Assembly: GCA_937863685.1 (NCBI GenBank)
Contig: CALMGM010000009.1
Span: 178,403 to 242,402 of the forward strand
Source of the DNA: an uncultured bacterium
Lineage (GTDB): Bacteria; Edwardsbacteria; AC1; EtOH8
Length of the DNA stretch: 64,000 nt
Direction of reading: 5' to 3'
The notes beneath the pieces were generated by a model. It saw nothing but the letters and a program-made list of their open reading frames with translations. It did not search any database and was not told the DNA's origin. A program made the translations under genes and the position numbers. Below, piece after piece: positions 2,047 through 63,398 of this stretch; position 1 is the first letter of the stretch; each line of letters begins with the position of its first letter.

Positions 2047-3246
2047 TCAGGCCGGGGCCAAATGGTCTGCCGCCAGCCGGGATATCGGTTCCTTTAAAAT
2101 ATCGGCGGTGATTATAGGCAGAAAAGCCCCGCCCTCGACGAACTTGGCCGACAGCAAGCCGAAGGTGATCTTTTCGATCCCGGCCGCCTTCAGCCCCGCC
2201 CGGTAGATCTGATAGGTCCGCTGAAAGGTCCCGTAATCCCGGGGGCCGGATTTCTGATAGGCCTCCTGCAGGGCATATTCCGCCGCTTCCTTCTCATCAC
2301 TATGTCGGATGATGAGATTCCGGAATTCTTTTTCCGTCAGATATTTATCCAGCCACAATGTGATGTCCTTGTCCTCGTTGTAGCCCAGGTGCAAGGTGGT
2401 CTGGCAGATTCCGCCGTATTCCAAGTGGTTTCGGACTCCTGACAGGATCTCCTCCACCAGCTCCCGCCCGCTGATGCCTCCCTCCCGATTCCAGGCTTTT
2501 ACCAAGCCCGGCGCCGAGGGCGGATTGGAGACGATTTTATCGAATTTTTGGCCGTTGACCGGTTGGTAAAGATCGCCGCAGATGAACTCCATGTTCCCGA
2601 TCCCGTTAAGCAGGGCATTGAACTTCGCCAGGTTTATCGCCCGGGGATTTATATCCACCCCTGTAACCTTTGCGGAATGGCGGGACATTATCAGTGACTG
2701 CAATCCCGAGCCGCAGCCCAGATCCAATGCAGTCTTGCATTTTTCCCTGACAAGCCCACGGGCCATAATGTACGAGGTCTTGTCCAGCCGCCAGACCAGA
2801 TTGTCGGACGATAGATATTGATCCCTGCCATATTCATCGACGTTCAGAAAGACCTTGTCGGTGGCTATCAGCAGATCCTCGAACGGCAGCAAGGTAAAGT
2901 TGGCGTGGACATCGCTCTGATCCATTGTACAGATCCCGATACTGCCTAGCAATTCCAGATCAGCGGTTCCCAAGGCTTGTTCGATAATATCCTTTTTGCC
3001 CGGCAGGCCTAAAACCAAAAAGCTTATGATATGACTTAAGGGAGTTGGATTATCCGCCAGCCTTTCGACAAACAACGGGAGATATTTGTATTCCAGCGGA
3101 TAAAGGTCGAAAATATTATCCAGGCCCAAAGCTTCTTTGACCTCCCCCACAGTCAACCCCAGACCTTTTAATTTAATCCCCAGTTGTTCAATCCGACCAT
3201 GGGTGATATTTTCATAGGATAACGGTTTTTCAAGGCTCATAGCCAT
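2047..3246 (-). CDS. Two-domain class I SAM-dependent methyltransferase (C-terminal MTS/RsmC-HemK-like domain with LDLGCGSG, VDIN and SNPP motifs; N-terminal ~190 aa domain of unknown function)
   Basis: Motif I LDLGCGSGLQ, an acidic DIN loop and an NPP motif IV were seen in the translation. An alternative upstream start at 3324 would overlap the preceding gene, so the start was placed at MAMSLEKP. Confidence 0.6.
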   Translation of the reverse strand: MAMSLEKPLSYENITHGRIEQLGIKLKGLGLTVGEVKEALGLDNIFDLYPLEYKYLPLFVERLADNPTPLSHIISFLVLGLPGKKDIIEQALGTADLELLGSIGICTMDQSDVHANFTLLPFEDLLIATDKVFLNVDEYGRDQYLSSDNLVWRLDKTSYIMARGLVREKCKTALDLGCGSGLQSLIMSRHSAKVTGVDINPRAINLAKFNALLNGIGNMEFICGDLYQPVNGQKFDKIVSNPPSAPGLVKAWNREGGISGRELVEEILSGVRNHLEYGGICQTTLHLGYNEDKDITLWLDKYLTEKEFRNLIIRHSDEKEAAEYALQEAYQKSGPRDYGTFQRTYQIYRAGLKAAGIEKITFGLLSAKFVEGGAFLPIITADILKEPISRLAADHLAPA

Positions 3247-5697: not shown

Positions 5698-5751
5698 TTT
5701 TCTCCTATAAAATTTAACAAACGACCCAGGCTTTCGCCTGGGTCATTAAAA

Positions 5752-7158
5752 TTATTCCCCGAATTTTTTAGGCCTCACTGTCTGTCCCTTTGGTCCATCC
5801 TCCACCATAAAGCTCAGTTTTGCTATCTCGTCCCTCAGCCGGTCGGATTCGGCCCAGTTCTTGGCCGTCCGGGCCTCCTGGCGCTTCTGTATCATATCCG
5901 CAATCTCTTTGGGAATGGCAGATTCACCGGCGGATTCGGTCAGTTTCAGCCCCAGAACCCGGTCGAAATCTTTTATCAGGCCCAGTTTCTGGGCTGCATC
6001 CAGGCTGTTATCTTTCAACAGATCCCAGACAATGGCCAGCACCTGCGGCATGTTCAGATCATCATTGATGGCTGCCAAAAATTTCTTTTTATATCCATCC
6101 TCCCCTTTCCCATCGGGGGAGGGATCCAGGGTGGGGTCCAGTTTCTTTACTTCCGCTCGCAGATTCTCCAGCGCCCGCTGGGCCGCGGTCAAAGATTCGT
6201 AGGTAAAACTTAATTGCGACCGATAGTGTCCGGTAAAGCAGAAATAGCGGTAGGCCAGCGGATCATATCCCTTGTCCATCAGGGTCTGCAGGATCAGGAA
6301 CTCACCGGATGATTTGGCCATCTTCTCCTGCCCCAATTGCAGAAAATATCCGTGCAGCCAGTAATTGGCCAGATTGGTGCCATGGCAGGCCTGGGTCTGG
6401 GCTATCTCATTTGTGTGATGCACCGCAATGGCATCCTCCCCGCCGCAGTGGATGTCGAACAGCGGGCCCAGGTATTTGGCGGCCATGGCCGAGCACTCTA
6501 TATGCCAGCCGGGAAAACCCTTGCCCCAGGGGCTTTCCCACTCCATCTGGCGCTGGGTCCCTTCGGGACTGAACTTCCACAGGGCGAAGTCGGTGGGATG
6601 CTTCTTCTCGCCCATCTCTATCCGGACTCCGGCCATCAGATCCTGCACTACGATCTTGGTGAGCACCCCGTATTTTTTCAGCTTGGCGGTATCGAAGTAG
6701 ATACCGTCCGAGGTCCGGTAGGTGTAGCCCTTCTCCTCTATGCACCGGATGGTCTCGACCTGCTCCTTTATGTGATCGGTGGCCTTGCACCAGATGTGCG
6801 GCTCCTGGATGTTCAGGTCCCGCAGGTCCTTCTTGAAGGCCTGGGTGTACTCCTCGGCGATCTCCCATGCGGTCTTGCCGGTGCGGCGGGAGCCCTTCTC
6901 CATCTTGTCCTCGCCGGAATCGGCGTCGGATTCCAGATGCCCCACGTCGGTGATATTCATCACCTGGTTGACCTGCAGGCCGTTGTATTCCAGGGCCCGG
7001 CGCAGAACGTCTTCGAAAATGTAGGTCCGCAGGTTGCCGATATGGGCGTAGTCGTAGACCGTCGGACCGCAGGTGTACATGCCCACCTGTCCGGTCTTTA
7101 AGGGTACGAACTCCTCCTTGGTGCGGCTCAATGTATTGTAAAGTTTGATAGCCATCAA
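5752..7158 (-). CDS. cysS: Cysteine--tRNA ligase
   Basis: YTCGPTVYDYAHIGNLRTY (HIGH region) and KMAKSSGEF (KMSKS) were seen. Overall class I aaRS, CysS-like. Confidence 0.9.
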   Translation of the reverse strand: MMAIKLYNTLSRTKEEFVPLKTGQVGMYTCGPTVYDYAHIGNLRTYIFEDVLRRALEYNGLQVNQVMNITDVGHLESDADSGEDKMEKGSRRTGKTAWEIAEEYTQAFKKDLRDLNIQEPHIWCKATDHIKEQVETIRCIEEKGYTYRTSDGIYFDTAKLKKYGVLTKIVVQDLMAGVRIEMGEKKHPTDFALWKFSPEGTQRQMEWESPWGKGFPGWHIECSAMAAKYLGPLFDIHCGGEDAIAVHHTNEIAQTQACHGTNLANYWLHGYFLQLGQEKMAKSSGEFLILQTLMDKGYDPLAYRYFCFTGHYRSQLSFTYESLTAAQRALENLRAEVKKLDPTLDPSPDGKGEDGYKKKFLAAINDDLNMPQVLAIVWDLLKDNSLDAAQKLGLIKDFDRVLGLKLTESAGESAIPKEIADMIQKRQEARTAKNWAESDRLRDEIAKLSFMVEDGPKGQTVRPKKFGE

Positions 7159-8097: not shown

Positions 8098-9123
8098 ATG
8101 GCCAAGATAATGGAAGTCATAGAATATTTTGACAATACCGGCAATCAGCTGGTGCACCGGGTTCCCGAGGACGGCTCGGGCGAGACCAAGATCGGCTCCC
8201 AGCTGGTGGTCCGGGAAAGCCAGCAGGCAGTGTTCTTCCGGGACGGCAAGGCCATGGACGTCTTCGGGGCCGGCCGCCATACACTGACCACCATGAACCT
8301 GCCGATCCTGACCGGAATGCTGAAAGGGGTCTTCGATGGCAAGAGCCCCTTTAGGGTGGAGGTCTATTTCGTCAATTCCAAGGTCTTCACCGACATGAAA
8401 TGGGGCACATCGGAGCCCATCCCCTTCCGCGACAGCGAACTGCAGATGATCCGCCTGCGCTCCTTCGGCATCTACTCCACCAGGGTCAAGGATCCCCAGC
8501 TATTCGTCAACAAGATGGTGGGCACCCAGGGATTATACACCACCGAGCAGATCGACGGCTTTTTGAAGAACGTCATCGTGTCCCGGCTGGCCGATTATTT
8601 GGGCGAGAACTACAAGACCATCCTGGACGTGGCCCAGCACTACGATGAGCTGGGGACCGGTCTGAAAGCCAGACTGCAGGAGGATTTCGGCAAGTACGGA
8701 CTGGAGATGGTGGACCTGTATATCAGCGCCATCACCCCCCCGCCCGAGGTTCAGGCCCGGATGGACGAGCGGGCCGGGATGGCCGCGGTGGGGGACCTTA
8801 ACCAGTACATGAAGTTCAAGGCGGCCAATGCCATGGGCGATGCCGCCAAACAGGAGGGCGGAGCGGCCGGAGCCGGGGTGGGCATGGGCGCCGGGATAGG
8901 CATGGGCATGATGATGCCCGGCATGCTGCAGCAGGCCATGGCCAGCGGACCGATGGCCGCCTGCCCCAAGTGCGGCACCCAGAACCAGACCACCGCCAAG
9001 TTCTGCTCCAACTGCGGCGGACCGATGGCGGTGGCCCCGGCCACCACCCCCTGCCCCAAGTGCGGCAAACCGGTGGCGACGGGCAGCAAGTTCTGCAATG
9101 ACTGCGGGGCGAAACTGGGGTAA
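8098..9123 (+). CDS. SPFH/band-7 domain protein with two C-terminal zinc ribbons (COG4260-like)
   Basis: The N-terminal SPFH-like region is followed by a Gly/Met-rich linker and CPKCGTQ...CSNCGG and CPKCGKP...CNDCGAKLG double CxxC zinc ribbons. Confidence 0.75.
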   Translation: MAKIMEVIEYFDNTGNQLVHRVPEDGSGETKIGSQLVVRESQQAVFFRDGKAMDVFGAGRHTLTTMNLPILTGMLKGVFDGKSPFRVEVYFVNSKVFTDMKWGTSEPIPFRDSELQMIRLRSFGIYSTRVKDPQLFVNKMVGTQGLYTTEQIDGFLKNVIVSRLADYLGENYKTILDVAQHYDELGTGLKARLQEDFGKYGLEMVDLYISAITPPPEVQARMDERAGMAAVGDLNQYMKFKAANAMGDAAKQEGGAAGAGVGMGAGIGMGMMMPGMLQQAMASGPMAACPKCGTQNQTTAKFCSNCGGPMAVAPATTPCPKCGKPVATGSKFCNDCGAKLG

Positions 9124-9165
9124 TGCCTTGCCCACGAAACACACGAAAAGACACTAATGTTATTG

Positions 9166-9233
9166 CCCCGTGTCATTCCTGCGAAGGCAGGAATCCAGGT
9201 GCTATTGAGCCACAAAGACACAAAGACTTTTTC
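9166..9233. repeat. Intergenic repeat, type A (CCCCGTGTCATTCCTGCGAAGGCAGGAATCCAGGTGCT...CCACAAAGACA...CTTTTT), ~90% identical to 11436-11512
   Basis: The two copies align by eye and flank the T9SS cargo gene. Confidence 0.7.
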
Positions 9234-9317
9234 GTCATTGCGAGAAGGGCATCAAAGATTGACAAGAGCCTGCACTGAGCCCAACACCTTGAATGGTTAT
9301 CGAAGTGAAGCAATCCA
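9234..9317. repeat. Intergenic repeat, type B (GTCATTGCGAG...GAAGCAATCCA), related to 11656-11699
   Basis: Shared terminal motifs GTCATTGCGA and GAAGCAATCCA. Confidence 0.55.
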
Positions 9318-9322
9318 AGCTT

Positions 9323-9372
9323 GTCATTCCTGCACTTAATTGCATTCAGCATAAATTCCAACAGGAATCCAG
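9323..9372. repeat. Intergenic hairpin repeat GTCATTCCTGCAC...AACAGGAATCCAGG
   Basis: Terminal inverted repeat CATTCCTG/CAGGAATC, same family as type A. Confidence 0.55.
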
Positions 9373-9421
9373 GATTTACCAATTCATTCCTGCTCTTTTC
9401 TCTTTGAAAGGGACAGAATCC

Positions 9422-11371
9422 ATGGGCAAAAATATGGCCCTATCCACTCTGTTGTTGATTATATCTGTAGCAGTCAACTCAAGTTCCGCACCGCTGCAAA
9501 GCACCAGTGGGATCCCCGGGAATGCGTTGACCGCTGGGCATAGCGCAAAGTCCATCATATTCCTTAACGAAGGTTTTGAGTATTGGCCTCCCGAGGGGTG
9601 GACGATCAATCCCCCGTCGGGATATTTGGCTTGGGCCCAGGGAAAGCTTGATTGCAGCACCTATGGCCCCTGGGTTTCCGAGCCGGACAGCGGGGCAGAA
9701 CATACCATCTCTTTTGCAGCTTATTCCATGTTATATCCCGGTAGTTGCGGGGACCTGGAAACTCCTGCCATCACCCTGCCCAACCCGGCCTCTTCCTGCA
9801 GTCTGGGGTTTTATGTCTATAACCGGCCCGATACCTCGCATGGCAATAACGACAGCCTGATCGTATCCGTTACTTCCGACAGCGGGATGAGCTGGAGCAA
9901 ACTTGGCGAGGCCAGGGGAGATATAAACGACTGGACGTATTATGCCTTCTCGCTGTCAGCCTATGCCGGGCAGACCATCCGGATCCAGTTCAGCGGCTAC
10001 AGCGACATCAATGGATCGGACATTTGCCTTGACGAGGTATGGTTCGGACAAAGACCCGCCAACGATGCCGCCATTACGGCCCTTTATGCCCCGGCCAGAC
10101 AGCAATTGTCCCCCATCCCGCCGTCGGTGGCCGTCAAGAATTACGGCACAGATACCGTTGACTCTTTGACCGTCACCTGCCGGATAGATTCGGCCGATGT
10201 CCCGATATATCAAAACCACAGCGACGTCACGGCCCTGGGCCCGGGAGAGACCCGAAAGGTGGAATTGCCCCTGTGGACCCCGGCCGCGGCAAACGGATAT
10301 TCTGCTGCCTTATATCTTTCCTGTTTGGCCGATGCCAATCCGGCCAACGATACGGTGATCGTGCCGACCAATGCTTATATCGCGCCGCGCACCGTCCTGG
10401 CCATGGATTTTACCGCCACCTGGTGCTTTGACTGCCCTTATATGCAAAACGCCCTGCACCAGCTAAAACAGGAAGCAAGCGATTCCTTGTGCGTCATGGG
10501 GATCCATATTTGGGGCGGGGCGGATATTTTTTGCAACCAGCATTCTACCGATATCTTGAATTATTATAACAACGTGGACTGGATTCCAACTGTGATCTGG
10601 GATGGCGGAGACAAACAGGTCGGCGGGTTCGCGGGTGATTATGACGACTGCCGGAGAGAGTTCAACAAAAGGAAGGGTTTCAACGCCCCGTTCACGATGG
10701 ACCTTGCCGGTACGGTCTCCGGGGATACGGTCAGGGTAGATGCTTCCATGAATTATCTGGGAGGTGCGCCGCTGCCGGCGTTTGCCAAGCTGGCGGCTGT
10801 CGAGGATAGGGCTTACGTCTGGCCCAGCCTGTCGGCTCCGGTTCACTGCGACAGCCTTCTTTACATACTGCGCGATGTGGTCCCCACCTCGGCCGGCGAT
10901 TCGCTGATGATCTCCCAGGGGGTAACGGAAATATCATTCGATCTGCCCCTCGATCCAACCTGGGCGCCTGCCAAAATGAATTTTATCGTTTATGCGGAGA
11001 ACCGGACAACAAAGGAGGTCTGCCAGGCCGGCCAGATATCATATGCCGAACTGTCGGGCGTTGCGGGGGATCCCGGCCGGAAAAGCATGGATGACCGGCC
11101 GGTTCTCCAGCAGACCTGGCCAAACCCCGCCCACAGCAATGTTAAGATCTCATATGACCTGAATATAGGCCGGCACGTAGTCCTGGCCATATTCGATATC
11201 ACCGGGAGAAAAGTTTGCGACCTGGTTTCGGGGGACAAACCCGCGGGGCGGCACGAAACAACCTGGAACGGCTGTAATAATTCCGGCCATAAAGCGGCCT
11301 GCGGCATATACTTTTCCATCCTGAAGACGACATCCGGTTCAACGGTCAGGAAAATTACCCTGATCAAATGA
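9422..11371 (+). CDS. Secreted T9SS cargo protein: signal peptide, choice-of-anchor-J-like N-domain, thioredoxin-like CxxC domain, T9SS C-terminal sorting domain
   Basis: Signal peptide MGKNMALSTLLLIISVAVNSSSA. LNEGFEYWPPEGWT motif. ATWCFDCPYM, a thioredoxin-fold WCxxC. C-terminal WPNPAHSNVKISYDL...LAIFDITGRKV, typical of the Por sorting domain. The listed ORF begins at 9293, but no RBS or signal peptide sits there. Confidence 0.7.
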   Translation: MGKNMALSTLLLIISVAVNSSSAPLQSTSGIPGNALTAGHSAKSIIFLNEGFEYWPPEGWTINPPSGYLAWAQGKLDCSTYGPWVSEPDSGAEHTISFAAYSMLYPGSCGDLETPAITLPNPASSCSLGFYVYNRPDTSHGNNDSLIVSVTSDSGMSWSKLGEARGDINDWTYYAFSLSAYAGQTIRIQFSGYSDINGSDICLDEVWFGQRPANDAAITALYAPARQQLSPIPPSVAVKNYGTDTVDSLTVTCRIDSADVPIYQNHSDVTALGPGETRKVELPLWTPAAANGYSAALYLSCLADANPANDTVIVPTNAYIAPRTVLAMDFTATWCFDCPYMQNALHQLKQEASDSLCVMGIHIWGGADIFCNQHSTDILNYYNNVDWIPTVIWDGGDKQVGGFAGDYDDCRREFNKRKGFNAPFTMDLAGTVSGDTVRVDASMNYLGGAPLPAFAKLAAVEDRAYVWPSLSAPVHCDSLLYILRDVVPTSAGDSLMISQGVTEISFDLPLDPTWAPAKMNFIVYAENRTTKEVCQAGQISYAELSGVAGDPGRKSMDDRPVLQQTWPNPAHSNVKISYDLNIGRHVVLAIFDITGRKVCDLVSGDKPAGRHETTWNGCNNSGHKAACGIYFSILKTTSGSTVRKITLIK

Positions 11372-11435
11372 CCGGGGCTAAGCTGGGGTAGGGCACCAAA
11401 CCACAGAGACCCTGGGACACAGAAATAATATATAA

Positions 11436-11512
11436 CCCCGTGTCATTCCTGCGAAGGCAGGAATCCATGTGCTTTTGAACCACAAAGACACCAAGGCACA
11501 AAACTTTTTTCG
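11436..11512. repeat. Intergenic repeat, type A (second copy)
   Basis: ACCCCGTGTCATTCCTGCGAAGGCAGGAATCCATGTGCTTTTGAACCACAAAGACACCAAGGCACAAAACTTTTTT. Confidence 0.7.
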
Positions 11513-11655
11513 GCTTTCTATTCTTGTCTGGCCCACATCTCCCCTAAAAAGGGGAGAAACAGTGGGGTGCCCCCGGGATAAAAAACCGCCAAGTCGCTAA
11601 GAACGCAAAGACTTTTCTTCTTTCGTCTTTGAACCTTCCACTTTAAACTGTCACA

Positions 11656-11699
11656 GTCATTGCGAAAAAGTCAGCATATAAGGCATTCGAAGCAATCCA
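11656..11699. repeat. Intergenic repeat, type B (GTCATTGCGAAAAAG...CGAAGCAATCCA)
   Basis: Shares both termini with 9234-9317. Confidence 0.55.
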
Positions 11700-11715
11700 C
11701 TAATACTTGTATGTT

Positions 11716-12120
11716 ATGAAAAGGAACCCCACCGAAAAGGATTTTCTGGCCCTGATCGGCCCCAAAGCCGAGTTGTGGACTGAAATACGTACCTATCTTG
11801 CCTCGCATTATGACCATAAGCCGGAACTGAGCGTTGGCAAAAATGAATACGATTGGACCATCCGTTACCGCGAATCCGGCAAAACCCTGGTAACGCTGAT
11901 GCCCGAACAGGGCGGATTCTGCGTTCTGGTTGTCTTGGGCAAGGAGGAAATTGAAAAGGTTGGCCATGCCAAGCTCAATGCTTACGTACAAGGCATTTTT
12001 GAAAACGCCAAGCAATACCACGACGGCCGCTGGCTGTGGATAAGGCCGAGGCACAAAGGAGATCTGAATTCGATCATTGCTTTACTTTCTGTAAAAAAGA
12101 TGCCAGCACTGATGAAATAA
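11716..12120 (+). CDS. Small conserved hypothetical protein (possibly DUF3788-like)
   Basis: ORF of ~135 aa. The family assignment is from memory of a similar WTIRYR...GKTL...GGF.VLVVLGK pattern and carries low certainty. Confidence 0.4.
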   Translation: MKRNPTEKDFLALIGPKAELWTEIRTYLASHYDHKPELSVGKNEYDWTIRYRESGKTLVTLMPEQGGFCVLVVLGKEEIEKVGHAKLNAYVQGIFENAKQYHDGRWLWIRPRHKGDLNSIIALLSVKKMPALMK

Positions 12121-12159
12121 AAACGAAACTCGCTTTAATTATAGATAGGAGGATCAGCC

Positions 12160-13047
12160 ATGTTTTTCATATTCACACTGATAATCGCCGCCGTAGCCGG
12201 ATACATGTGGTTCTCGGCCGGCAAAAAGACCCAGCAGTTCAACGAGGCCTTTGCCAAGAACAAGGCCATCTCCGGCATCGTAGCCGTATTCTTCCTGGTG
12301 ATCGCGGTATTCCAGATGCTGACCGTCATCCCGGCCGGGCACGTAGGCGTGGTGGATTTCTTCGGACACGTGTCGCCGGGGACCCTCAAGGCCGGCATCA
12401 ACCTGCGCAACCCGCTGGCCCGGATCGTAAAAATGTCCATCAAGACCCAGGAGCTCACCGAGGACATGCCGGTGCCGTCCAAAGAGGGCTTGACCGTCCA
12501 GCTGGACGTCACCACCCTGTTCCACCTGGATCCGGAGAAGGCCGCCGAGATATACAAGACTGTGGGGGCCGATTACGCCAATATCATCCTGGTCCCCCAG
12601 TTCCGTTCGGTCTGCCGGGGGGTCACCGCCAATTATGAGGCCAAGGCCCTCTACACCGCCCAGCGGGAACTGCTGGCCAAGGCCATTCAGCAGGAGTTGA
12701 ACGGCCTGATCAACGCCCGGGGCATCATCATCGAAAGCGTTCCCCTTCGCCGGGTGGGCCTGCCCAAAAAGGTGACCGACGCCATCGAGGACAAGCTCAA
12801 GGCCGAACAGGAAAGCCAGCGGATGGAATGGGTGCTGACCAAGGAAAAACAGGAGGCCGAAAGGAAACGCATCGAGGCCAAGGGCATCTCCGACTTTCAG
12901 AACATCGTGGCCCAGGGCATCAGCCAGCCGTTGCTGAGGTGGAAAGGCATCGAGGCCACCGAGAAGCTGGCCAGCTCGCCCAACGCCAAGGTCATAGTCA
13001 TCGGCGCCGGCAAAGACGGCCTGCCGATAATCCTGGACACCCAGTAG
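12160..13047 (+). CDS. SPFH/band-7 (prohibitin/HflC-like) membrane protein
   Basis: An N-terminal TM helix is followed by an SPFH domain (PAGHVGVVDFFGHV...LTVQLDVTTLFHLDPEKAAEIYKTVGADY) and a C-terminal coiled coil. Confidence 0.75.
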   Translation: MFFIFTLIIAAVAGYMWFSAGKKTQQFNEAFAKNKAISGIVAVFFLVIAVFQMLTVIPAGHVGVVDFFGHVSPGTLKAGINLRNPLARIVKMSIKTQELTEDMPVPSKEGLTVQLDVTTLFHLDPEKAAEIYKTVGADYANIILVPQFRSVCRGVTANYEAKALYTAQRELLAKAIQQELNGLINARGIIIESVPLRRVGLPKKVTDAIEDKLKAEQESQRMEWVLTKEKQEAERKRIEAKGISDFQNIVAQGISQPLLRWKGIEATEKLASSPNAKVIVIGAGKDGLPIILDTQ

Positions 13048-13089
13048 GCTGGCTCATCCTGTCGCACTTAAAAGACCATACGCCACAGT

Positions 13090-13146
13090 GTCATGCCTGT
13101 GAAGAAAGGCATCCAGCCGTGGATTCCATCTTTCGATGGAATGACA
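13090..13146. repeat. Bipartite hairpin repeat (GTCATGCCTG..AGGCATCCAG + GATTCCATC..GATGGAATGAC), REP/BIME-like
   Basis: Same GTCAT...CCAG / GAT...ATGAC architecture as 52949-53013 and 63330-63384. Confidence 0.6.
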
Positions 13147-13177
13147 TTTCGAGCATTAACATCAACCGGAGAACATC

Positions 13178-13435
13178 GTGATCAAAATTCTTGGGCTGCT
13201 GGCCGGCTTCCTGACCACCCTCAGCTTTCTGCCTCAGGTGATAAAAAGCCTGAAGACCAAGCACATGGATGATTTCAACATCTGGTTTTTGATATTGATG
13301 ATAGTCGGCCTTTCCCTGTGGACCGTCTACGGGTTCATGATAAAACAGCTGCCCATCATCATCGCCAACCTGGCGACCATATCGCTGAACCTGATACTGC
13401 TGGGGCTCAAGATCAAATATCAAAAACAAAAATAA
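13178..13435 (+). CDS. SemiSWEET/PQ-loop sugar transporter (GTG start)
   Basis: An 85 aa three-TM protein with the PQ motif (LSFLPQVIKSLKTK). Its size is typical of bacterial SemiSWEETs. Confidence 0.65.
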   Translation: MIKILGLLAGFLTTLSFLPQVIKSLKTKHMDDFNIWFLILMIVGLSLWTVYGFMIKQLPIIIANLATISLNLILLGLKIKYQKQK

Positions 13436-52917: not shown

Positions 52918-52948
52918 AATTGTATCCTTAATTATTATATACTCTGGG

Positions 52949-53013
52949 GTCATTCCCGCAAAAGCGGGAATCCAGTTCTTTTATCTGGATACCTGCCTTC
53001 GCAGGTATGACAT
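52949..53013. repeat. Bipartite hairpin repeat (GTCATTCCCGCAAAAGCGGGAATCCAG + GGATACCTGCCTTCGCAGGTATGACAT), REP/BIME-like, operon-internal
   Basis: Two adjacent perfect 8-9 bp stem hairpins. Same architecture as 63330-63384. Confidence 0.75.
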
Positions 53014-59900: not shown

Positions 59901-60026
59901 TTATAAAACAGACGAAACCTAGCCTTTCGGCTAACTCACCCCGGTCATTCCCCTTCGCCTTAATATATAGCCATGACCTTCCCCTCTCTTTTAAAGAGAG
60001 GGGAATAAAAGGGGTGAGTTAAATAT

Positions 60027-60050
60027 AAAACCCCGCCTTTCGGCGGGGTT
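60027..60050 (-). terminator. Hairpin AAAACCCCGCCTTTCGGCGGGGTT downstream of gene 60067-61050. The same hairpin recurs at 61131 and 61573.
   Basis: Perfect 8 bp GC-rich stem. The sequence is identical at three sites. Confidence 0.6.
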
Positions 60051-60066
60051 ACTGCGGAAGAATGCA

Positions 60067-61098: not shown

Positions 61099-61160
61099 CA
61101 TACCAAAACCAACTTCCGTCTGTCAACCAGAAACCCCGCCTTACGGCGGGGTTTTGTTGC
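61099..61160. repeat. ~60 nt repeat module (CATACCAAAAC...TGTCAACCAGAAACCCCGCCTTACGGCGGGGTT) ending in the shared hairpin. Second copy at 61541-61598.
   Basis: The two copies are ~80% identical across ~55 nt. Confidence 0.65.
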
Positions 61161-61178
61161 TTATATTTAACTATCATT

Positions 61179-61540: not shown

Positions 61541-61598
61541 CATACCAAAACAATCCTCTACCTGTCAACAAGAAACCCCGCCTTTCGGCGGGGTTTCT
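61541..61598. repeat. Second copy of the ~60 nt repeat/terminator module, also serving as the groEL terminator
   Basis: CATACCAAAACAATCCTCTACCTGTCAACAAGAAACCCCGCCTTTCGGCGGGGTTTCTTCTG. Confidence 0.65.
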
Positions 61599-61635
61599 TC
61601 TGAATTCAATATTCTAAATTCGGTATTCCCGGATA

Positions 61636-63285
<1,650 letters not shown>

Positions 63286-63329
63286 TTATTCCTCTATATG
63301 ATTTTTATTTTTTGGCTTTAAATTGCTCT

Positions 63330-63384
63330 GTCATTCCCGTGAAAACGGGAATCCAGACTGGATACCCGCCTGCGCGGGTATGAC
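63330..63384. repeat. Bipartite hairpin repeat (GTCATTCCCGTGAAAACGGGAATCCAG + GATACCCGCCTGCGCGGGTATGAC) between groES and groEL
   Basis: Same architecture as 52949-53013. The stems show compensatory changes. Confidence 0.75.
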
Positions 63385-63398
63385 GAAAAGCGTTCTAT

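Follow-up and report, generated by a model that had tools for sequence, protein, structure and literature searches.

The closest described relatives of the elements considered here are two sets of short hairpin repeats. The CGTC-1 repetitive extragenic palindromes (REPs) have a CGTC head (often TGTC, with CCTC accepted), an 8-bp stem starting with AT, a 4-nt loop and a CCA tail, and include the Neisseria repeat dRS3; a dedicated transposase for CGTC REPs was not found in the 2013 survey that defined them (Di Nocera, De Gregorio, Rocco 2013, BMC Genomics 14:522; PMC3733652). The second set comprises the 28-nt NTS (CGTCATTCCCGCGMAVGCGGGAATCYRG) and the broader class of "Ssn-related motifs" (SRM), which are the targets of Ssn, small GIY-YIG nucleases (cd10448) that bind the hairpin and cut upstream of it, acting on single-stranded DNA only and on the forward strand only (Chenal et al. 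2025, Nat Commun 16:2388; PMC11893778). The GTC head matters for Ssn cutting and the C after the palindrome for binding, and the partnership was shown experimentally in four species. In N. meningitidis the NTS/Ssn pair lowers transformation by NTS-bearing DNA, and among genomes with over 200 motifs, 81% have a gene for an Ssn homolog (PMC11893778). Here we describe a family of hairpin repeats in a 64,000-nt stretch of DNA from an uncultured bacterium (assembly GCA_937863685.1, contig CALMGM010000009.1, positions 178,403 to 242,402; hereafter the window), the GroEL of which is 98-99% identical to proteins of Candidatus Edwardsbacteria metagenome-assembled genomes (MAGs). We consider it probable, at roughly 60%, that these Edwardsbacteria elements are CGTC-type REPs, members of one superfamily with Neisseria dRS3/NTS and the Ssn-related motifs, and that they are acted on by an Ssn-type nuclease.

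Architecture and classification of the canonical unit

A first-pass annotation of the window, made from the letters alone, had proposed a REP-like repeat family with a palindromic core. The family is real. The pattern GTCATNCC-N(6-30)-GGNATCCA has eight matches in the window compared with 0.04 expected from dinucleotide shuffles of the same 64 kb, and a covariance model trained on 65 distinct units, mostly from other phyla, and run on the window without filters recovered precisely these eight, at scores of 35.8-47 bits. The model's next hit, at 14 bits, was the reverse strand of a real unit, leading us to regard the window inventory as complete and the unit as strongly directional (36-47 bits for the forward strand of units, 8-14 bits for the reverse strand). 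Within the window, the pattern search and the covariance model both came out in favor of the annotation.

The eight canonical units, two of them single and six in three inverted doublets, are all intergenic (Table 1). Each is 26-28 nt long and consists of a YGTC head, a stem of AT plus six base pairs, a 4-nt loop, the complementary stem and a CCA(G) tail. The head is TGTC in six units, CGTC in one and GGTC in one, GTC being invariant, and the loops are mostly of the form G-N-A-N (GAAG in four, GAAA in two, AAAA and GCAG in one each). All eight have an 8-bp stem opening with A-T, a CCA tail and an invariant C directly 3' of the palindrome; the stem variants ATTCCTGC and ATACC are common. That stem sequences differ while pairing is kept, as the annotation had claimed, was confirmed by the unit alignment, in which 63 of 64 stem cells are paired and four of the eight stem positions vary, solely by changes on both sides; none of 500 shuffles reached the observed pairing and covariation values. 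DNA folding of the single units and doublets gave z-scores of -3.9 to -6.8. The further claim, that the differing stems argue for selection on structure, stands as regards the compensatory changes and does not extend to RNA structure in particular, as the covariation fits a DNA hairpin equally well and is by itself no proof of selection on RNA.

Several copies had been described as followed by a second hairpin ending in ATGAC. This hairpin exists and is a second unit on the opposite strand, giving the three inverted doublets, in each of which the GTC heads lie outside and the CCA tails face each other across spacers of 4, 11 and 3 nt. Directional hairpin repeats in inverted doublets also make up bacterial interspersed mosaic elements (BIMEs) and the REP doublets known as REPINs, in keeping with the REP-class reading of the annotation.

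Every CGTC-1 descriptor (head, 8-bp stem with A-T first, 4-nt loop and CCA tail) is found in the window units, and these are repeated (eight against 0.04 expected), extragenic throughout and arranged as inverted dimers in three doublets. Published CGTC-1 REPs and the window units also agree in being mostly inverted dimers, often heterodimers, with no REP-associated tyrosine transposase (RAYT) nearby. The two differ in that Ca. Edwardsbacteria lies outside the five phyla given for CGTC repeats in that the doublet spacers of the window are very short (3-11 nt) and in the frequency of the stem variants ATTCCTGC and ATACC in the window; the correspondence between the HH/TT terms of the CGTC-1 paper and the heads-outside geometry used here is uncertain. 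With NTS and the SRM the units share the core sequence, an intergenic and clustered distribution, a position flanking variable genes and the directional flanks, GTC upstream and C just after the palindrome being present in eight of eight. The suggestion that the family may be undescribed was consequently abandoned, since head, stem, loop and tail fit the published CGTC-1 repeats (PMC3733652) and the units resemble NTS/SRM (PMC11893778); the new part of the family's range appears to be its host lineage, Ca. Edwardsbacteria.

Distribution of the unit and its probable GIY-YIG partner

A scan of species-representative genomes with the pattern GTCATNCC-N10-GGNATCCAG returned at least 120 loci, with 154 matches listed. 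The 8-bp stem is perfect in 138 of the 154 listed matches, though the pattern left four stem positions free. Hosts among the listed matches include members of the Dehalococcoidia (Chloroflexota), Nitrospirota, Bacteroidota, Zixibacteria, Latescibacterota, Planctomycetota, Desulfobacterota, Bdellovibrionota, groups of the candidate phyla radiation (CPR) and the alpha-, beta- and gamma-Proteobacteria, including Neisseria lactamica. Because heads lie outside in 62 of 78 adjacent unit pairs among the matches listed, the window doublets have the usual geometry, with spacers at the short end. The unit pattern is also present on at least 120 predicted viral contigs of IMG/VR (L149-L268, L-numbers being labels of comparison loci); these contigs may include host flanks, so that carriage by phages is not established.

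GIY-YIG genes adjoin units in Methylotenera, Azospirillum, Novosphingobium, N. gonorrhoeae and three viral contigs. The gene in Methylotenera (L048; 94 aa, PF01541, E 2.5e-13), located between glyQ and glyS, is directly enclosed by a heads-outside unit pair, and tblastn showed 58.5% identity between it and an unannotated stretch in a record of N. gonorrhoeae. A heads-outside pair likewise encloses the gene in Novosphingobium, where the units are of a different CGTC type, and in viral loci L202 and L231. The Azospirillum gene is placed between sufB and sufC, with two complete doublets flanking it, and that of N. gonorrhoeae is embedded in unit arrays. Of the eight ssn loci compared, four (L048, L146, L202 and L231) have the gene directly enclosed by a heads-outside pair. 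The nearest units are directed inward in Azospirillum and N. gonorrhoeae, L150 has units on the upstream side only and L255 has none nearby. The idea that doublets are strict gene-less versions of unit-ssn-unit cassettes was dropped, an enclosing pair being present in only four of the eight.

Several further observations concern the Ssn-like genes. Four of the listed viral loci encode an Ssn homolog (L150, L202, L231 and L255). Three small Ssn-like genes are situated inside gene pairs that are otherwise conserved, glyQ-glyS in Methylotenera (L048, 6116-6468), sufB-sufC in Azospirillum (L145, 473-981) and MmeI-DrmA in a Planktothrix plasmid (L147, 586-870), a placement that resembles selfish insertion. 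A search with the Methylotenera Ssn homolog returned Methylophilaceae only, among the best 120 matches.

The gene found beside such units bears on the partner that the annotation had expected, a RAYT or IS200-like transposase. The units are comparable with the REPs, BIMEs and REPINs of E. coli and Pseudomonas in being short, extragenic, imperfect palindromes that form inverted doublets, occur inside operons and are thought to be non-autonomous mobile elements. The E. coli and Pseudomonas repeats have a GTAG head, a Y1 (HUH) transposase and a genus-specific sequence, whereas the unit described here has a YGTC head, is near-constant across phyla and is, in other organisms, associated with a GIY-YIG nuclease. 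Were this a classical REP/BIME or REPIN family whose spread depends on a RAYT (IS200-like Y1) transposase with its gene at another place in the genome, this would account for the imperfect palindromes in inverted doublets, an arrangement typical of BIMEs and REPINs, and for extragenic units whose presence differs between strains. All units, however, carry YGTC and not the GTAG that RAYTs recognize, no transposase or GIY-YIG family was found among the 38 window open reading frames (ORFs) scanned against Pfam, and where a gene does stand beside such units it is a GIY-YIG gene. We therefore consider a RAYT to be the wrong candidate and its involvement highly improbable, also because the 2013 survey found no dedicated transposase and Ssn has been shown to be the partner in four species.

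Turnover between strains and a proposed mechanism

Units have been gained, lost and inverted between related strains, and some stand at the edges of a strain-variable gene cassette. The clearest case is the groES-groEL spacer, where the 55-nt GTCAT...ATGAC block of the window (63330-63384) exactly reverse-complements its counterpart at this position in L001, L002, L129, L131 and L132: there are 0/55 differences when one is reverse-complemented and 13/55 when they are compared directly. The flanks in these five assemblies are 305/319 and 347/355 identical to those of the window, and GroEL is ~98% identical. L007 and L130 have the doublet in the common orientation within diverged flanks. The only two loci obtained in a metagenome scan with the conserved groEL leader also have the common orientation. 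An unrelated repeat occupies the spacer in L006 (GroEL 99% identical), L008 and L133, and L003-L005 have neither. The exact inversion, the unrelated repeats at the same site in close strains and the units bracketing a variable cassette (below) are new here.

The other two doublets were found in the window only. At the nuoB-upstream site the doublet is absent from L001, L006, L007, L008, L131 and L132, which have other palindromic repeats there, and downstream of the SPFH gene L134, L137 and L139 carry a different hairpin. The repeats that take the place of the doublets can be described briefly. That of the groES-groEL spacer is ~90 nt long (CTGATGACGCAGATCGAC...GGTTCATCCG; L006 9861-10000, L008 9861-10000, L133 9859-10000), and its occurrence there instead of the doublet suggests that these operon spacers are contested by several families of palindromic repeats. 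Upstream of nuoB, hairpins of the form CCACCAAGAC...GTCTT..GGCGG are found in relatives (L001 20995-21093, L006 20818-20916 and L008 19584-19682) and a long CGAAATACGAAAC...GTTTCGAATTTCG element in L007 (19718-19860); CACGAAA/CCACAAAGAC words like those of these repeats flank the single units of the window (~9133-9160 and 9207-9233). The SPFH-downstream hairpin of relatives, CTGTCACCCTGAG...GGGTGACAG (L134 6889-7014, L139 6889-6991), likewise has TGTCA at its start and is possibly another related type of motif.

Cassette content varies between strains in the spacer that separates the Band7/zinc-ribbon gene from the SPFH gene (window 8098-13047; L134 5693-6000; L139 3095-6000). In the window the cassette contains a gene for a protein with a type IX secretion system (T9SS) tail and a DUF3788 gene, and is bracketed by two 65-nt direct repeats, 91% identical, each made up of a canonical unit and its tail. 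In L134-L138 the spacer is 308 nt long, has no genes and holds one variant and one canonical unit, the 65-nt module being present once; L139-L141 have four other genes at this site. The orthologous unit of L134 differs from window unit 11441-11469 by a compensatory C-G to T-A change. These bracketing repeats would be expected if the main role of the units were to provide other recombinases, for example IS110-family elements or phage integrases, with landing or crossover sites, and if they had spread as a by-product of recombination between strains. REPs have been reported as targets of insertion sequences (IS) and Neisseria dRS3 as a target of a phage recombinase (PMC3733652, PMC11893778), and the unit occurs on the viral contigs mentioned above. 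We nonetheless regard this explanation as decidedly unlikely: no IS or integrase gene adjoins any window unit, the conservation of head and tail across phyla is left unexplained, and the IMG/VR contigs may include host flanks.

Classic E. coli REPs within operons protect mRNA or set expression ratios, and the annotation had placed two copies of the present family inside operons. Doublets do lie in the groES-groEL and nuoB-upstream spacers. The identities of GroES (Cpn10), GroEL and NuoB (Oxidored_q6) were confirmed, and both genes of each pair are on the minus strand; the "nuoA-like" neighbor of nuoB, a 114-aa ORF, has no match in Pfam, and its label therefore rests on position only. The units could thus act mainly as RNA, their hairpins shielding upstream mRNA from 3' exonucleases or setting the groES:groEL and nuo subunit ratios. 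The two doublets between co-transcribed genes are consistent with such a role, the compensatory changes in the covarying stems are what selection for the folding of RNA would produce, and the other structured repeats that relatives hold in the same spacers may mean that some hairpin is wanted there. The 27-nt unit recurs, however, in many phyla and in unrelated gene contexts, which points to a shared sequence-specific partner and not to local RNA needs. In addition, SsnA does not bind the RNA form of its motif (PMC11893778), the common loops GAAG and GCAG are not GNRA loops, the doublet functions in both orientations and is missing from close strains, and the units have neither a T-run terminator nor an Rfam match. 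We consider a mainly RNA-based function unlikely.

Under the reading that we prefer, CGTC-type REPs acted on by an Ssn-type nuclease, the forward strand of the unit would, by analogy with the tested species, fold when single-stranded, for instance during replication, transcription or DNA uptake, and a small GIY-YIG Ssn encoded elsewhere in the genome would bind the hairpin and nick just upstream of the head. Ssn cutting together with recombination between units could, by the same analogy, drive spread, loss, in-place inversion and cassette exchange. The hairpin of a unit transcribed within an operon may affect mRNA stability as a side effect, which does not explain the conservation of the unit sequence across phyla. 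The groES-groEL inversion requires breaks at or within the 5-nt GTCAT/ATGAC ends and is for this reason explained more readily by cutting at the heads than by ordinary homologous recombination; alternatively, it may have arisen by template switching at an imperfect palindrome.

Several points weigh against this reading. Searches of the window and of 282 kb of partly redundant Edwardsbacteria DNA (regular expression and tblastn) found no Ssn or GIY-YIG gene, so a nuclease of Edwardsbacteria itself is putative and, in contrast to NTS/SRM, an ssn gene has so far not been found with the repeats in the DNA of this lineage that was searched. No unit matches NTS CGTCATTCCCGCGMAVGCGGGAATCYRG at one mismatch or fewer; the four that were counted by hand (u9172, u52949, u63330 and u63384rc) differ from it at two to three positions, mostly by paired stem changes. 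The SRM pattern HGTCWYN(0-2)YYVSBRHN(0-5)WNVSBRGN(0-2)RNCYNB is matched by two of the eight units, both in the groES-groEL spacer, and at least some of the remainder appear to fall outside it through a T at a stem position where the pattern requires V. For these two reasons we file the units firmly under CGTC-1 REPs and provisionally under the Ssn-related motifs. All single units (window, L134 and L139) are oriented like the flanking genes or local transcription, as an RNA role would predict. The inverted orientation was seen in one assembly only and, finally, what has been shown for Ssn is the cutting of DNA and not its movement or inversion, so the mobility of the units is inferred.

A more speculative extension, which we put forward tentatively and think unlikely, is that the heads-outside doublet is a non-autonomous element in miniature, mobile or invertible, that corresponds to a unit-ssn-unit cassette without the gene, with Ssn cutting both outer heads in trans. 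Doublets resemble bacterial miniature inverted-repeat transposable elements (MITEs; e.g., Neisseria Correia/NEMIS) in being small and non-coding, with inverted ends, located near or between genes and present or absent according to strain. They differ from MITEs (70-300 bp) in their length of 55-65 nt, in having no visible target-site duplication and in that each end is itself a hairpin.

Elements of the window and their significance

The features of the window are given in Table 1 in two coordinate sets, bare pattern matches (26 nt) and full unit spans (29 nt).

Table 1. Canonical units, variants and related repeats in the window, with covariance-model scores and DNA folding z-scores.
Feature	Span (strand)	Pattern match (strand)	Sequence and context	Score and fold
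Single canonical unit	9171-9199 (+)	9172-9197	TGTC-ATTCCTGC-GAAG-GCAGGAAT-CCAG; downstream of Band7/zinc-ribbon gene (8098-9123)	47 bits; z -3.9
65-nt module, left direct-repeat copy	9161-9225 (+)		unit + CCACAAAGAC tail; 91% identical to 11431-11495	
Variant unit	9234-9317 (+)		GTCATTGCGAG...GAAGCAATCCA, 63-nt interior	z +1.1, not a predicted hairpin
Long-interior derivative of canonical unit	9323-9372 (+)		GTCATTCCTGC, 29 nt, CAGGAATCCAGG	weak fold, z -1.6
Single canonical unit	11441-11469 (+)	11442-11467	within right 65-nt repeat copy 11431-11495	43.9 bits
Variant unit	11656-11699 (+)		GTCATTGCGAA...CGAAGCAATCCA; directly upstream of DUF3788 gene	z +0.3, not a predicted hairpin
Inverted doublet	13089-13146: 13089-13117 (+), 13118-13146 (-)	13090-13115 (+), 13120-13145 (-)	downstream of SPFH gene	35.8 and 37.4 bits; z -4.0
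Inverted doublet	52948-53012: 52948-52976 (+), 52984-53012 (-)	52949-52974 (+), 52986-53011 (-)	114-aa ORF/nuoB spacer	42.9 and 44.6 bits; z -6.8
Inverted doublet	63329-63385: 63329-63357 (+), 63357-63385 (-)	63330-63355 (+), 63359-63384 (-)	groES-groEL spacer	45.3 and 45.6 bits; z -6.4

Some members of the original list fared less well than the canonical units. The two GTCATTGCGA...GAAGCAATCCA variants of the window are homologous to each other and to repeats at orthologous sites in L134 (~5738-5782) and L139 (~3191-3237) and are thus real repeats, as proposed, but they do not fold as hairpins: Watson-Crick hairpins were rejected on the z-scores of the window copies, and no significant fold was found in the orthologues or in a compact form seen in other phyla (z -1.25 to +1.15). 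The copy at 9323-9372 keeps the head, half-stems and tail of a canonical unit but has a 29-nt interior and folds weakly, and the covariance model detects its 3' half only, at 9 bits. The copy listed at 59943-59977 is not a member; it shares GTCATTCC by chance and belongs to another element. That element is a nested hairpin on the minus strand (59940-60012), upstream of the Proton_antipo operon, in which CTCACCCC and GGGGTGAG enclose ...TTCCCCTCTCTTTTAAAGAGAGGGGAA...GGTCAT..ATGACC, and it is conserved in relatives (L001 ~14401, L002 ~13385, L007 ~13087, L133 ~12913). A TCTCCCCTAAAAAGGGGAGA hairpin resembling it lies at ~11540-11560. Three near-identical terminator-like hairpins, AAACCCCGCCTTTCGGCGGGGTTT (60028-60059, 61131-61162 and 61573-61604), are placed around the variable genes that separate groEL from the Proton_antipo operon, and two of them are preceded by a common 56-nt sequence (61099-61154 and 61541-61596, 86% identical).

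Other identities for the units were considered and rejected. They are not intrinsic terminators, as no unit in 9000-13400 was called as one and no T-run follows any unit, nor members of an Rfam family (0 matches at or above the gathering threshold in the whole window) or tRNA or tmRNA genes (none in the window). A tRNA-like minihelix, with a 7-bp stem, discriminator base and CCA, was set aside because it is DNA, and not RNA, on which the tested partner acts.

Characterization of the repeat family and of its partner enzyme has concerned Neisseria and a few other species. The locus described here adds a candidate phylum to the host range of CGTC repeats. It is also of value for annotation, as the units seed spurious short ORFs and are mistakable for regulatory RNAs in MAGs. 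The contrasts between strains at fixed sites (doublets present, absent, replaced or exactly inverted, and a swapped cassette) can serve to distinguish between mobility of the motifs and their use as recombination hot spots. If the doublet does prove to be a mobile or invertible element cut by Ssn, the 55-nt inversion would be the first trace found in nature of an in vivo rearrangement of Ssn-type motifs, and a single-domain GIY-YIG nuclease would be able to act like a transposase or invertase.

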